Shown here in pieces: positions 4,275-12,589 of a stretch of 64,000 nt of DNA. The stretch spans positions 32,001-96,000 of the forward strand of contig JBALDB010000018.1 in NCBI GenBank assembly GCA_036918135.1. Direction: 5' to 3'. Position 1 is the stretch's first letter. Every line of letters begins with the position of its first letter. Source of the DNA: Nostoc sp. Lineage in GTDB: Bacteria; Cyanobacteriota; Cyanobacteriia; Cyanobacteriales; Nostocaceae. Position numbers and translations under genes: made by a program. Under the pieces are notes generated by a model. It made no database searches and was not told the origin of the DNA. It saw only the letters and a program-made list of their open reading frames with translations.

Positions 4275-4378
4275 TGTAGTATCTCCTTGACAATATGTAT
4301 TTTATATATTACAAATGTAGTATGAGAACAAAAGCTTTTCTAAAAGGCTAAGGCAAAACATCTCAGAACCTAGAAAAC
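4275..4378 (+). promoter_or_regulatory. Putative promoter/leader of the RNA array: TGTAGTAT repeats, TTGACA, boxB-like hairpin and boxA-like element
   Basis: TGTAGTAT 4275 and 4316; TTGACA 4287; hairpin AGCTTTT-CTA-AAAGGCT 4333-4349; GAACCTAGAAAAC 4366-4378. Confidence 0.5.
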
Positions 4379-4401: not shown

Positions 4402-4482
4402 GGGGTCGCGATTGGTGTTCGACTGCTCCGAAACCAACAAACGGACGGTAGCAGGATTCGGGTTCAATTCCCGACGACTCCA
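4402..4482 (+). ncRNA. Mini tmRNA-like RNA (tRNA-like domain only)
   Basis: GGGGTCG/CGACTCC-A acceptor with G3.U70; unpaired D-loop ending TTCGAC; helix CTGCT/AGCAG; T-arm TCGGG-TTCAATT-CCCGA; no tag ORF. Confidence 0.7.
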
Positions 4483-4499
4483 CTGACTTCTACTTGTTT

Positions 4500-4706
4500 G
4501 GGTCTGTAACTCTAATGGTAGAGCGCCCAGATTCACTTGTGCTCTGACAGAAAAAGCTTACATACTTGCTCAAAGGTAGAGCGATCGTCTCTAAAACGAT
4601 AAGTGCAGGTTCAATTCCTGCGGTGTAACCACAGCTTTTTCAACTCGCACGAAGTGTGAGTGCAACTCTCACAGGGAAGGTATCGGTTCAATTCCGATCA
4701 GATCCA
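4500..4706 (+). ncRNA. tRNA-like RNA whose anticodon arm is replaced by scaffold cassette 1
   Basis: Acceptor GGGTCTG/CAGATCC-A; D-arm ACTC-TAATGGTA-GAGC; T-arm ATCGG-TTCAATT-CCGAT. Confidence 0.7.
4534..4656 (+). ncRNA. Scaffold cassette 1 carrying a tRNA body with CUA anticodon
   Basis: GTGC..GAAAAAGC-TTACATA..GCTTTTTC-AACTC-GCAC; D-arm GCTC/GAGC; ATCGT-CTCTAAA-ACGAT; GCAGG-TTCAATT-CCTGC. Confidence 0.75.
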
Positions 4707-4732
4707 CTAAATAATTTGTAATTCGTAATTAA

Positions 4733-4948
<216 letters not shown>

Positions 4949-4961
4949 AATATTTAGTTAA

Positions 4962-5141
4962 CCATGCCCTAACAGAAGAAGCATACATACACATTCATAA
5001 CGATCCTAAGGTAGTAAAATTCGAGCGATCAAACTAGCGAAGTATGATTTATAAATTTTTTGCAGATTTAGCATACGTGCCCACTGCCAATAGTTGGTAA
5101 GAGCGATCGTAAGCTGTAAAAAGCTTCTTAAACTTGTACGG
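4962..5141 (+). ncRNA. Scaffold cassette 2 carrying a permuted 23S rRNA domain IV (H67-H71) mimic
   Basis: AAGAAGC/GCTTCTT stem; ATAACGATCCTAAGGTAGTAAAATTC vs 23S ATAACGGTCCTAAGGTAGCGAAATTC. Confidence 0.7.
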
Positions 5142-5156
5142 ATTAATTGAAGAATT

Positions 5157-5300
5157 AATTCCGCGCCCTGACTTGTAAAGCATACAAACATATATCCGGT
5201 AACGGAATACAGGTTCGATTCCTGTCGCTCCCTTTGATGGGAGCGTAGCCAAATTGGTAAAGGCAACTGTGAAAACTGCTTTGCTAACTTGTGCGGAATT
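5157..5300 (+). ncRNA. Scaffold cassette 3: circularly permuted tRNA (YrlA-like Y RNA architecture)
   Basis: T-arm ACAGG-TTCGATT-CCTGT; acceptor CGCTCCC-TTTGAT-GGGAGCG closed by a loop; D-arm GCC-AAATTGGTAAA-GGC. Confidence 0.8.
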
Positions 5301-5361: not shown

Positions 5362-5491
<130 letters not shown>

Positions 5492-5649: not shown

Positions 5650-6030
5650 ATGTCTGTGAACACTCTAGAAATTTTAGAGCAAATCAAGTCTCTAAATGTC
5701 AATGAAACCGCTCAATTAGTAAAGCAGATTGAAGCAACTTTCAATGTCGATATATCCACACCTAAATTCCTTAAGATTGACAAGCGAGATGAGGATGAAA
5801 CTCAACCGCAGATTCAAACGGAATTTGATGTCTTGTTGGTATCGGTTCCAACAGAGAAAAAGATTGCCTTACTCAAGGTCATCCGGACGGTGACTGGACT
5901 GGGACTCAAAGAAGCAAAAGACTTTGTAGAATCCCTGCCTCAAGTAGTTCAAGCAGGACTGAATCAAGAAGCGGCTGAAATTCTTAAGCAGCAGCTAGAG
6001 GAAACAGGAGCAGTTGTTTCTCTGATGTAA
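5650..6030 (+). CDS. rplL: Divergent ribosomal protein L7/L12 paralog
   Basis: TEFDV..KKIALLKVIRTVTGLGLKEAKDFVE C-terminal domain; no rplJ/rplA/rplK adjacent. Confidence 0.85.
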   Translation: MSVNTLEILEQIKSLNVNETAQLVKQIEATFNVDISTPKFLKIDKRDEDETQPQIQTEFDVLLVSVPTEKKIALLKVIRTVTGLGLKEAKDFVESLPQVVQAGLNQEAAEILKQQLEETGAVVSLM

Positions 6031-6102: not shown

Positions 6103-6180
6103 GTTGCTGCGCCCCGATAGCAGAAGCTTACATAACTCTGCATAAGTTATACACGATGCTTCTACAACTTGCGTGGTGAC
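6103..6180 (+). ncRNA. Scaffold cassette 5 with a minimal anticodon-like hairpin
   Basis: GTTGCTGCGC/GCGTGGTGAC; AGAAGC-TTACATA..GCTTCT-ACAACTT; cargo ATAACT-CTGCATA-AGTTAT. Confidence 0.65.
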
Positions 6181-6223: not shown

Positions 6224-7672
<1,449 letters not shown>

Positions 7673-7807: not shown

Positions 7808-8914
7808 CTAAACACCAAATAGGTACTTAGCAATGCTTTTATTTTTCATCAGAATGAATACAGCTAACCAACTCATGATAAAAGTGGGTAGAGAAAATGC
7901 TAATTGAGAAATAAAAGTTACTTCATCTAATAACTGAGGTTGAGTTTTCTTCAGATAAATCTCCATAAAATTAATTCCAAATAGGTGTATCAAGTAAATT
8001 CCAAAAGAACATAATGCTAAATTTCTTATGACGCTGTTTGGTTTTAAGTAATTCGATAAAACAATACCGTATAATAAAAGAGAATATCCCAGAAAAACTT
8101 CCCGAAAACCAGTAAGTATTGGGTTACTATAAACGTCAGCAATAAGAAATAAACCTAATAACAAGTAAGCATATACGAGTTTCACACGCAACAATGAAAA
8201 GTTGGTTTTAAGAAGTAAATACCTTAAAGTCATTGCAATAAAAAAGTAAGGTAAACACCTCAATAACCATGCTACTTCTATAGATATAAACCTCAAAAAC
8301 TCATTTTTAGAAGGCTCGTAATTCACTAGATTAAATAAATTATTAAAAGCTATATCGTTATGTAAATCTACTGTATTTCCAGTAATTAAAAGCAGGTTGT
8401 AGAGGATGAGGCTCAACAGAGACAAACTAGCTAATATTTTAAGTCCAATTTTCGGTTTTGCGAAGTAATTTGCAAATATTATGAGCGAAGTACCTACTAG
8501 CAATAGCGGTAAATAGTATAATTGATATGATGCTTTTCCATAAAATATAATTAAAAAAGGATCTCCTAATAGATGATTTAATTCTTCTTTTTGATTTGAT
8601 GCTGAAAACATAATTATTTTGGCAATCAGATAAATAACTGTCCAAACTATATATGGTATTAGGAGACGCCGACATCTTGCTTTCCAATAAGTTAATGAAA
8701 AGTCAGCATTCGACTTACAAATCATGAAGTAGAAAGATGCAGCTAAGAAAAAGGGAACAGCAAAACTAAATAGATATTGTATCTCTTGGGAAAAGTAACT
8801 TGCACGATCCCGATTTGGATCGGCTGAATGTAGTAAGACAACTGCGTATGCCGCGATTCCTCGGCACAAATCAACACCCGATAGCCTTGGTTTTGCCTCT
8901 ATTTTTGACTGCAT
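7808..8914 (-). CDS. Acyltransferase family 3 membrane protein
   Basis: DLCRGIAAYAVVLLH, AVPFF, RRLLIPY, SFGIYLIH; very AT-rich. Confidence 0.85.
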   Translation of the reverse strand: MQSKIEAKPRLSGVDLCRGIAAYAVVLLHSADPNRDRASYFSQEIQYLFSFAVPFFLAASFYFMICKSNADFSLTYWKARCRRLLIPYIVWTVIYLIAKIIMFSASNQKEELNHLLGDPFLIIFYGKASYQLYYLPLLLVGTSLIIFANYFAKPKIGLKILASLSLLSLILYNLLLITGNTVDLHNDIAFNNLFNLVNYEPSKNEFLRFISIEVAWLLRCLPYFFIAMTLRYLLLKTNFSLLRVKLVYAYLLLGLFLIADVYSNPILTGFREVFLGYSLLLYGIVLSNYLKPNSVIRNLALCSFGIYLIHLFGINFMEIYLKKTQPQLLDEVTFISQLAFSLPTFIMSWLAVFILMKNKSIAKYLFGV

Positions 8915-9240: not shown

Positions 9241-9549
<309 letters not shown>

Positions 9550-9735: not shown

Positions 9736-9938
9736 TGCGTGCCCCAACTCGTGGAGCCTACATATTAGTACGAGAGGAAGGTAACACTGCCGAATGCAGT
9801 GGGCGTTAGTGAACGGGGAGTGCGAAGAACCTGGAAAGTGGGCTTAGAAGTAGCCATCTTTGAAAGAGTGTGTAACAACTCACCAGCGGAGTCCCTCTAG
9901 TAACTGAGAAAACGCAATGCTCCACCAACTTGCACGCA
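9736..9938 (+). ncRNA. Scaffold cassette 6 carrying 23S sarcin-ricin loop and H42-H44 GTPase-centre mimics
   Basis: TGCGTGC/GCACGCA; GTGGAGC/GCTCCAC; AGTACGAGAGGA 9767-9778; GGCTTAGAAGTAGCCATCTTTGAAAGAGTGTGTAACAACTCAC. Confidence 0.8.
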
Positions 9939-11406: not shown

Positions 11407-12045
11407 ATGAGTATCTTTTTTCACGAACAGCTTTACCGCAGCAATGCTGTGATGGCAAAGTTGAAAAACTATCCTGTAACAATTTGTGGGGCGGGGGCGT
11501 TAGGGGCTAATATTGCTGAGAATATGGCTCGGTCTGGTTTTGATAAACTGACAGTAATCGATTGCGATCGCATTGAGGAGCGTAATCTTTCCACCCAGCC
11601 TTACTACCGTTCCGATGTTGGAGCATTCAAAGCAAAAATATTGGCAAACAATTTATACCGAGCAATTGGTACTAAAGTTGATGCTAAAACCAAAGAATTG
11701 ACATCAGCAAATGTCAATCAACTACTCCAAGATAGTCAATTAATTATTGATGCTTTTGACAATAGCGTAGCACGTCAATTAGTAAAAGATTATGCCACTC
11801 AATTTAGCATTCCTTGTCTTCATGCTGGGCTAGCAGTTGATTATGCAGAGGTAATTTGGAATGATGTTTATCGCGTTCCTTCTGAGGTTAATGATGATGT
11901 TTGTGATTATCCTTTGGCACGAAACTTAGTAATATTAACCGTTGCTGTAGTATCGGAAGCGATTGTTTCATTTATTGCCACAACAGAACGGCGTAACTTC
12001 ACCATCACTTTGAAGGATTTGACTGTTCAACCTTTGTTTTTGTAG
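11407..12045 (+). CDS. ThiF/MoeB/E1-family adenylyltransferase
   Basis: ICGAGALG, DCDRIEERNLSTQ, KAK, IIDAFDN; candidate catalytic Cys in VCDY. Confidence 0.9.
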   Translation: MSIFFHEQLYRSNAVMAKLKNYPVTICGAGALGANIAENMARSGFDKLTVIDCDRIEERNLSTQPYYRSDVGAFKAKILANNLYRAIGTKVDAKTKELTSANVNQLLQDSQLIIDAFDNSVARQLVKDYATQFSIPCLHAGLAVDYAEVIWNDVYRVPSEVNDDVCDYPLARNLVILTVAVVSEAIVSFIATTERRNFTITLKDLTVQPLFL

Positions 12046-12127
12046 ATGGCGATCGCAGAATTTGTAATAAGCTGGAAAAGCTAAACCATTAACAGCGAAA
12101 ATGAGCAAATTATGAGCCTTAAAACCA

Positions 12128-12358
12128 GTGCCTAAGAAAATTAGAGAACTGAAGGCAATGGTAGCAAAAGTTGGATATATTCTTCAGCCAGGTCGAGGAA
12201 AAGGAAGTCATACGTATTGGAAACATCCGTTATTACCTGAAGAACCTCTGACTATTCCAGGTAAGGAGGGAGATGATGCTCCGCTATATTTGGAGAAGAA
12301 CATTCAACGGGTTCTCAAAAGGTTGGAAGAGTTTGAAAGCGATGAAGGTGAATCATAA
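12128..12358 (+). CDS. hicA: HicA-family toxin
   Basis: GKGSH motif, 76 aa. Confidence 0.85.
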   Translation: MPKKIRELKAMVAKVGYILQPGRGKGSHTYWKHPLLPEEPLTIPGKEGDDAPLYLEKNIQRVLKRLEEFESDEGES

Positions 12359-12589
12359 ATGAGTTATTACTACAGCATGGTGATTCAGTGGTCAGAGGAC
12401 GATCGACTATTCTTAGTGCATTTGCCAGAGTTCCCCTGGCAGGAGTTTCATACGCATGGCAAAACTTACGAAGAAGCTGCCAAAAATGGGCAGGAAGTAA
12501 TTGAGGCGTTTGTTGAGATGCTGCAAGAAGAGGGAAAACCACTACCAGAACCCAGAATGCTTCCTAGACGACCATTACAGGTTGCTTAG
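12359..12589 (+). CDS. hicB: HicB-family antitoxin
   Basis: IQWSEDD..LPEF..THGKTYEEAAKNGQEVIE..PLPEP; abuts hicA. Confidence 0.85.
   Translation: MSYYYSMVIQWSEDDRLFLVHLPEFPWQEFHTHGKTYEEAAKNGQEVIEAFVEMLQEEGKPLPEPRMLPRRPLQVA

Follow-up and report, generated by a model that had tools for sequence, protein, structure and literature searches.

A tRNA-Ala-like shell with a putative Ro60-binding handle and exchangeable cargo in place of its anticodon arm in Nostoc and other cyanobacteria

In a 64,000-nt stretch of a Nostoc sp. genome (assembly GCA_036918135.1, contig JBALDB010000018.1, positions 32,001-96,000; hereafter the window), one tRNA appears to be enclosed within another, and the inner one bears the amber anticodon CUA. 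What kind of RNA such an arrangement would give rise to, and whether the amber anticodon matters to it, is the question raised by this locus. As read from the sequence, the nested unit is 207 nt long and occupies positions 4500-4706 of the + strand. Its parts are as follows.

4500-4506, + strand: 5' strand of the outer acceptor, with G1, G2 and G3 (sequence and ortholog alignment)
4507-4525 (arm proper 4509-4524), + strand: outer D arm, with G18G19
4526-4533, + strand: 5' strand of the anticodon-stem remnant and junction linker (ortholog alignment)
4534-4566, + strand: 5' strand of the handle, comprising closing stem, P1, internal loop, P2 and the AAGCTTACATAC motif; predicted Ro60-binding part (covariation)
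4559-4631, + strand: inner tRNA body with D arm, T arm and anticodon loop CT-CTA-AA at 4589-4595 (ARAGORN, Rfam)
4633-4656, + strand: 3' strand of the handle (repeat copies and covariation)
4656-4672, + strand: junction hairpin of 5 bp, with loop TGCAACT here and U-GNRA-YU in the family
4673-4681, + strand: 3' strand of the anticodon-stem remnant and 5-nt variable loop (RNAalifold, alignment)
4682-4698, + strand: outer T arm, canonical, with loop TTCAATT
4699-4706, + strand: 3' strand of the outer acceptor, with U70 and the discriminator A73 at 4706

Anatomy and conservation of the nested unit

The initial annotation described an outer tRNA shell with a G3·U70 acceptor, in which the anticodon arm is exchanged for a cassette and a hairpin. 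This anatomy can be read in the sequence, and RNAalifold recovered the same nested fold unprompted from 72 distinct orthologs. The outer acceptor consists of seven pairs (4500-4506 with 4699-4705), G3·U70 among them, and after A73 the genome reads CTA and not CCA, so that the CCA of the shell is not encoded here. The anticodon stem is reduced to a remnant of 3 bp (4526-4528 with 4674-4676), which encloses a 123-nt cassette (4534-4656) in place of the anticodon arm together with the 5-bp hairpin. The outer D arm begins with an A·C mismatch in the source genome and has U at position 14, a residue that replaces the usual A14 in all 72 orthologs. ARAGORN and Rfam called the inner body only and neither called the outer shell. 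The fold of the unit had a z score of -3.3, with none of 200 shuffles equally stable, and a looser shell test was passed by 6 of 20,000 shuffled flanks and by 6 of 20,000 random genome slots. When the source genome copy was folded as a single sequence, the acceptor, T arm, handle stem P2 and inner arms were supported, and the outer D stem, anticodon remnant, handle stem P1 and hairpin received a probability of about zero. Judged by its sequence, the shell carries the anatomy for tRNA-type processing along with alanine identity elements.

A lack of conservation in the outer arms had been named beforehand as grounds for giving up this reading. The acceptor strands were found to be conserved at 0.99-1.0 among the 72 orthologs, with values of 0.79 before position 4500 and 0.66 after position 4706. 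No double changes were found in the outer acceptor, D or T stems of these orthologs, and therefore covariation does not prove the outer stems in that set. Among 39 of the 107 type-1 shells, where related rows are counted more than once, double changes were present in the T stem (6 rows, the first pair passing from A-U to G-C), in the hairpin stem (17 rows, one pair changed on both sides) and in the handle stems. Because the acceptor has no double change in the 39 shells, its pairing is argued from complementarity and sharp boundaries. Comparison of the source genome with 27 shells of the stem-loop type gave identities of 0.99 for the acceptor, 0.87 for the T arm, 0.80 for the D arm, 0.75 for the handle, 0.71 for the hairpin region and 0.33-0.36 for the flanks. 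The acceptor is thus the most identical part across shell types, indicating that selection is strongest there.

The loop of the junction hairpin reads U-GNRA-YU in 105 of 110 distinct shells, which we take to fit the T-loop folding motif. At one locus (L223, 1501-1666) the hairpin keeps its loop on a stem that is exchanged throughout; the shell there lies directly after tRNA-Arg, where other arrays hold tRNA-Ala. Two explanations of the hairpin were rejected. The loop positions vary among shells, which argues against a relic alanine anticodon. The other, mimicry of 16S rRNA helix 42, was based on an 8-nt identity with the 16S rRNA of genome G471 that is not significant (E 1.2-2.7; 99-113 of 200 shuffles were as good, and the L223 stem resembles helix 42 more), and this likeness is retained as a lead only.

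The full-length unit was present in 134 of the 389 genomes of the host's family and some match in 223, the former figure being a hand count of listed rows with five partial rows left out; all counts are inflated by kinship and by horizontal spread of arrays. When a covariance model built on the unit was searched against other cyanobacterial families, it gave full-length matches some 180 nt long that have this shell and handle and a short cargo. The model also matches ordinary tRNAs in all 151 genomes, and only the top full-length matches were therefore used. One query of the short-cargo type matched 22 of 401 class-wide genomes. No phage or viral copies were detected in viral contigs or in 50,697 phage records. 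One full plasmid copy was found, and other Nostocales plasmids carry handles without a shell. The full copy (L236) lies on the 69-kb Dolichospermum plasmid NZ_CP051207.1 next to a tyrosine recombinase, and this locus also has the small ORF described below, three handles and the start of a Ro60-like gene.

Cargo types, the inner tRNA and the relation to array tRNA-Ala

Further sequence searches combined with a structural parser yielded the 110 distinct shells, which come from five families. The cargo is a tRNA body in 80 of them, a bare anticodon stem-loop in 27 (with the loop CU-GUU-AA in 19) and something else in three; an anticodon loop is thus the cargo in 107 of 110. The description of the unit as a tRNA within a tRNA is correct for this genome and does not extend to the family, since a tRNA body is missing from 30 of the 110 shells. 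A shell of a second type, whose cargo measures 80 nt, was seen at L152:1283-1499, L151:1678-1892 and L193:1681-1897, in tandem with the first type at two of the three loci. It is nearer to array tRNA-Ala, having a bulged acceptor, an encoded CCA and a longer anticodon stem, and its cargo gave no significant rRNA or Rfam match. In a tree built without the cargo, from which 44 Nostocaceae rows were dropped to leave 50 of 94, the shells with tRNA bodies fell on one weak branch (87/71), and the order of cargo exchange is not fixed by it.

In other cyanobacterial families the shell lies within a long tRNA array, usually just 5' of the small ORF and the Ro60-like gene, and a tRNA-Ala gene adjoins it in 8 of the 10 distant loci scanned. 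When the shell halves were scored against 404 tRNAs, array tRNA-Ala was the best match for each of the seven shells tested. The alanine identity set is described as A73, G2-C71 and G3·U70, with no anticodon element, in the part of the literature drawn on here (PMC9976931). G3·U70 is present in 109 of 110 shells and G2-C71 in 72 of 72 orthologs; position 73 is A in 105 shells and G in 5, and CCA is encoded in 14 of 110. Two alanine elements are absent, G4-C69 being an invariant U4-A69 and G20 being U. The source genome's own tmRNA also has U4-A69, and its acceptor differs from that of the shell by one pair. A 5-bp anticodon stem with a 7-nt NGC loop, as tRNA-Ala has, is absent and is replaced by the remnant, handle and hairpin. 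Position and these sequence comparisons make it very likely, in our estimation, that the outer shell derives from a tRNA-Ala of the long stress tRNA arrays.

The inner body was called by ARAGORN (4558-4630, CUA) and by the Rfam tRNA model (49.8 bits), and its D, T and anticodon loops are canonical in the source genome. Its acceptor has 6 bp and is bulged, and the 5' strand of this acceptor is the handle motif. The initial annotation stated that the inner tRNA has no free acceptor end; this is right for the precursor and overlooked that the bulged acceptor is followed by an encoded A-CCA at 4628-4631 (CCA at 4629-4631). By sequence, the inner body is a latent tRNA of 73 nt, and, given the internal CCA, it may be cut out. 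The triplet CUA, on which that annotation had centred, is not conserved: it is found in 32 of the 80 distinct shells with a tRNA body, a sample weighted to close kin of the source genome, and these carry 14 triplets in all and six irregular loops. Conservation of the inner anticodon loop is 0.76 among the 72 orthologs.

Could the inner tRNA (4559-4631) be cut out and act as an amber suppressor? Its canonical loops and the A-CCA after its acceptor would suit such a role, as would the fact that CUA is the commonest triplet, and the share of cores with an internal CCA is 58 of 69 among the shell-borne ones versus 19 of 97 among shell-less handles with tRNA bodies (kin are not independent in this comparison). 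Against it stand the variety of triplets and irregular loops, the loss of the D-loop GG in 42 of 72 orthologs and of the T-loop UUC in 41 of 72, the bulged acceptor whose 5' strand is the invariant handle motif, and the 30 shells that have no tRNA body. TAG is also a common stop in the source genome, where it closes 729 of 2,724 long stop-free stretches, and the PylRS model TIGR02367 found no match in this genome, which is 99.99% complete. An excised suppressor is therefore most improbable, and the amber-suppressor or tRNA-Pyl reading was rejected, in line with the initial annotation's own doubt that the inner part is a working suppressor. Because the cargo varies among shells, the inner tRNA is, on comparative sequence evidence, a passenger and its amber CUA is incidental. 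Annotation of tRNA-Pyl or of an amber suppressor at such loci would be a mis-call of the cargo.

The handle cluster, the Ro60-like gene and expression

The unit stands in a cluster with the following further features.

4275-4282 and 4316-4323, + strand: two TGTAGTAT boxes, matching the TrcR repressor site as described in PMC10272220
4288-4293, + strand: TTGACA hexamer between the TrcR-type boxes (sequence)
4402-4485, + strand: mini-tmRNA-like RNA, tag-less, an optional neighbour (Rfam tmRNA 43.2 bits, below the cut-off of 47)
4739-4948, + strand: small conserved ORF ending in Gly (no Pfam family)
4964-5139, + strand: handle copy 2, cargo with a piece like 23S rRNA helix 69 (0 of 200 shuffles)
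5163-5294, + strand: handle copy 3, circularly permuted tRNA cargo with T arm, closed acceptor hairpin and D arm in YrlA-like order
5369-5484, + strand: handle copy 4, shell-less tRNA body, loop with GCG (ARAGORN, Rfam)
5650-6030, + strand: ribosomal protein L7/L12 paralog (Pfam PF00542, E 1.5e-23)
6109-6174, + strand: handle copy 5, short cargo
6239-7672, + strand: Ro60-like protein of 477 aa, helical ring and vWA domain (profile, fold)
9739-9935, + strand: handle copy 6, cargo with pieces of the 23S sarcin-ricin loop and L11 site

The handle is present in six copies within the window and nowhere else in the source genome. A YrlA match was obtained only in handle copy 3 (5208-5264), at 24.1 bits against a cut-off of 69. 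The small ORF lies directly downstream of the unit in 33 of 34 loci, and the 5' motif of the mini-tmRNA-like RNA was found in 32 of 84 ortholog flanks, that is, at only part of the loci; the mini-tmRNA-like RNA at 4402-4485 itself carries G3·U70. A 179-nt segment at 9337-9515 repeats part of the Ro60-like gene (6989-7167) with 93% identity and lies upstream of the sixth handle and that handle's own two TrcR-type boxes. An AT-rich acyltransferase-3 gene (7808-8914, - strand) splits the cluster, which ends at 11407-12589 with a ThiF/E1-like gene followed by a HicA-HicB pair. At five loci (L180, L181, L182, L184 and L185) handles lie within long tRNA arrays and adjoin a tRNA-Trp call; some annotated array tRNAs may therefore be handle cargos. 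The T loops of tRNAs and tRNA mimics at L003, L024, L028, L149 and L176, and in RNA contigs of relatives, frequently carry an insertion of a short repeat about 20-25 nt long.

The Ro60-like protein was identified by profile and fold. A profile of 84 relatives matched human Ro60 in the PDB with an E value of 2.6e-17, and in a structure model with a pLDDT of 90.7 the top 12 Foldseek matches were all Ro60/TROVE proteins (TM 0.60-0.72); an earlier model from a shallow alignment (pLDDT 64) was set aside. The Pfam TROVE family matched none of the 84 members and vWA_Ro60 matched 20, and the profile and fold matches to Ro60 extend over the ring. The unit lies 1.5 kb upstream of this gene on the same strand, within the distance of up to 4 kb used for Y RNAs, and the gene lies no more than 3 kb downstream of the unit in 29 of the 30 loci with enough sequence. 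By hand comparison, the Ro60-like gene accompanies the complete unit in 128 of 134 genomes. About 50 of the 178 family genomes with a Ro60-like gene do not have a full shell, and the shell is thus an accessory. Decayed copies that have lost the 5' half of the shell were noted at L097 and L100 (G667, G668) and at L099 (G326); G667 has a partial Ro60-like match, and G668 is absent from the set of genomes that matched. In none of the 110 handles was the Y RNA motif GNCGAAN0-1G present.

According to the portion of PMC10272220 that deals with this repressor, a TGTAGTAT-type box is the TrcR site of the stress tRNA operon of Anabaena, and rtcB belongs to the TrcR regulon. Of 84 distinct ortholog flanks, 68 contain TGTARTAY no more than 300 nt upstream, compared with 1.8% of random windows, and a promoter scan called no + strand promoter at 4275-4323. 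Contigs from eight RNA-library runs of relatives cover the shell, and one from run X8 bridges the handle and the 3' part of the shell (4623-4696). Such contigs (word shares 0.04-0.10, with no silent-stretch control) represent coverage only, with rare forms dropped, and are no measure of transcription, level or ends. Run X6 gave short deep contigs over shell-specific parts, one of which stops at 4707; this is where an added CCA would depart from the genome sequence and is taken as a hint only. A joint between 4566 and 4631 was rejected as a sign of excision, since 66 other letters stand between its two sides and it represents a paralogous handle.

Proposed working of the unit and comparison with known systems

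The observed anatomy, conservation, three cargo types and linkage to a Ro60-like gene lead us to propose, with slightly better than even confidence, that a tRNA-Ala-like shell, a handle and an exchangeable cargo form a charged, Ro60-docked decoy with two faces that would act during translation stress. The comparisons with array tRNAs indicate, with little doubt about the array origin, that a handle was inserted into the anticodon arm of a duplicated array tRNA-Ala gene. Transcription would be repressed by TrcR and would be followed by an RNase P cut at position 4500, 3' cleavage after 4706 and CCA addition, a sequence of events that we consider very probable. This maturation is proposed because the features required by RNase P, the 3' nuclease and the CCA enzyme are retained in the shell, and the mature product is likely to be a single RNA of about 210 nt cut out by tRNA-maturing enzymes. 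Engineered tRNA scaffolds of like design are processed and protected in Escherichia coli, as reported in PMC3753655. Because AlaRS reads the acceptor and not the anticodon, the RNA would rather probably be alanylated; alanine identity resides in the acceptor, which explains how a tRNA-Ala could remain chargeable once its anticodon arm is gone and why conservation in the shell is highest there.

By analogy with Y RNAs (PMC4201824 and PMC12135203, in the parts consulted), the handle would probably dock the RNA on the neighboring Ro60-like ring, and the charged acceptor end and the anticodon loop would be displayed at opposite ends of the resulting RNP. The two ends might then draw acceptor-end or anticodon-directed toxins or nucleases away from real tRNAs. 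This decoy step is the weakest of the model, and we rate its chances as somewhat under even. It is favored because the cargo is nearly always an anticodon loop whose triplet is free to vary, and because VapC-type nucleases are induced in stressed Anabaena, where some array tRNAs and no housekeeping tRNAs are reported as cleaved (PMC8421152, as excerpted). The same source describes the array tRNAs as stress-induced, mostly aminoacylated and processed to single tRNAs. A more tentative reading is that an alanine-charged tRNA chassis tethers to the Ro60 ring a cargo that is swapped by recombination between handles, the cargos being an anticodon stem-loop, an entire tRNA whose CCA end is latent, or a domain of 80 nt.

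Other accounts of the shell do without the decoy. The shell could be a passive cap for processing or stability, left when a handle landed in an array tRNA-Ala gene, which gives clean ends and frees the downstream mRNA and for which charging would be irrelevant. The other five handles work without a shell, about 50 genomes with a Ro60-like gene lack it, and U14, the missing G4-C69 and the G73 of five shells are compatible with such a cap. RNase P and RNase Z need shape, yet the acceptor is more identical (0.99) than the T arm (0.87) and D arm (0.80), and 109 of 110 shells retain the G·U wobble, so we regard a passive cap as unlikely. Still less probable is a tmRNA-like rescue RNA, alanylated and delivered by EF-Tu to stalled ribosomes to receive the nascent chain in a codon-independent way; the place of SmpB would be taken by the junction hairpin or the Ro60-like protein. 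The shared topology of an alanine acceptor with a long insert for the anticodon arm, the single pair separating the acceptor from that of the genome's tmRNA, and the adjoining mini-tmRNA and L7/L12 paralog speak for it. The D arm, however, is paired and of tRNA type, as is the variable loop; no Rfam tmRNA match spans the unit (the short-cargo form scores 10.7 bits) and ARAGORN made no tmRNA call; and the insert has no tag-like frame, with stops in all three frames. A 477-aa ring on the anticodon arm would also be hard to fit in the A site. It is likewise conceivable that the insert is an intron whose excision is followed by RtcB ligation of the halves into tRNA-Ala, given the position of the insert at the anticodon arm, two RtcB genes in the genome and the place of rtcB in the TrcR regulon. 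The halves, however, give no 5-bp stem with a 7-nt alanine loop, the GNRA varies (GCAA, GTAA, GAAA, GAGA) such that no anticodon is kept, Rfam reports no intron family, and no joint skipping the insert was found in the RNA contigs of the eight runs from relatives. A spliced tRNA-Ala was rejected on these grounds, and we give the intron reading hardly any credence.

If the favored model of a charged, Ro60-docked shell is true, the engineered tRNA scaffold would have an equivalent in nature, and the unit would join tmRNA as a case in which alanine identity keeps a tRNA chargeable without its anticodon arm. It also bears on the role of bacterial Ro60-bound tRNA mimics. Culturable Nostocales, among them the carriers Nostoc linckia NIES-25 and Tolypothrix tenuis PCC 7101, offer a natural series with one shell, three cargos and handles with and without a shell, for which ribosome-targeting antibiotics and trcR deletion are known inducers. 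No earlier description of the unit was found in the open full-text literature or in Rfam, the two sources covered.

By its sequence, the unit falls outside the criteria for YrlA, tRNA-Ala, tmRNA and tRNA-Pyl. It resembles the YrlA Y RNAs (RF02553), in which, as the consulted part of PMC4201824 describes them, the anticodon stem of a tRNA-like domain leads into a 5'/3' stem that has an internal loop, and whose genes share the strand of a Ro60-fold gene and lie no more than 4 kb from it. Mycobacterium smegmatis YrlA is reported there to be opened by RNase P and to gain CCA. In the unit, by contrast, the tRNA is unpermuted and forms an outer closure with free ends, the shell joins the bottom of the handle with a second tRNA or stem-loop on top, and there is an alanine identity; neither the motif GNCGAAN0-1G nor the order of T arm, acceptor hairpin and D arm is present, and RF02553 does not match. 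With the tmRNA tRNA-like domain (RF00023) the unit shares the G3·U70/A73 acceptor and the long insert replacing the anticodon arm, and it differs in its paired D arm, tRNA-type variable loop and lack of a tag frame; an ordinary tmRNA is encoded elsewhere in the source genome. The L-array (trn operon) tRNAs under TrcR, as treated in portions of PMC8421152 and PMC10272220, are the apparent source of the shell, have like boxes and share an array with it in other families. Unlike them, the unit is not a decoding tRNA, and it lies here with the Ro60-like cluster while the array is on another contig. The scaffold of Ponchon and Dardel (PMC3753655, as far as excerpted) likewise keeps the acceptor, D and T arms and takes its insertion at the anticodon stem-loop, whereas the unit is natural and has a handle predicted to bind protein, a junction hairpin in addition, and cargo of three types. 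The unit is thus built like the engineered tRNA scaffold and is predicted, by analogy, to work like a Y-type tRNA mimic.
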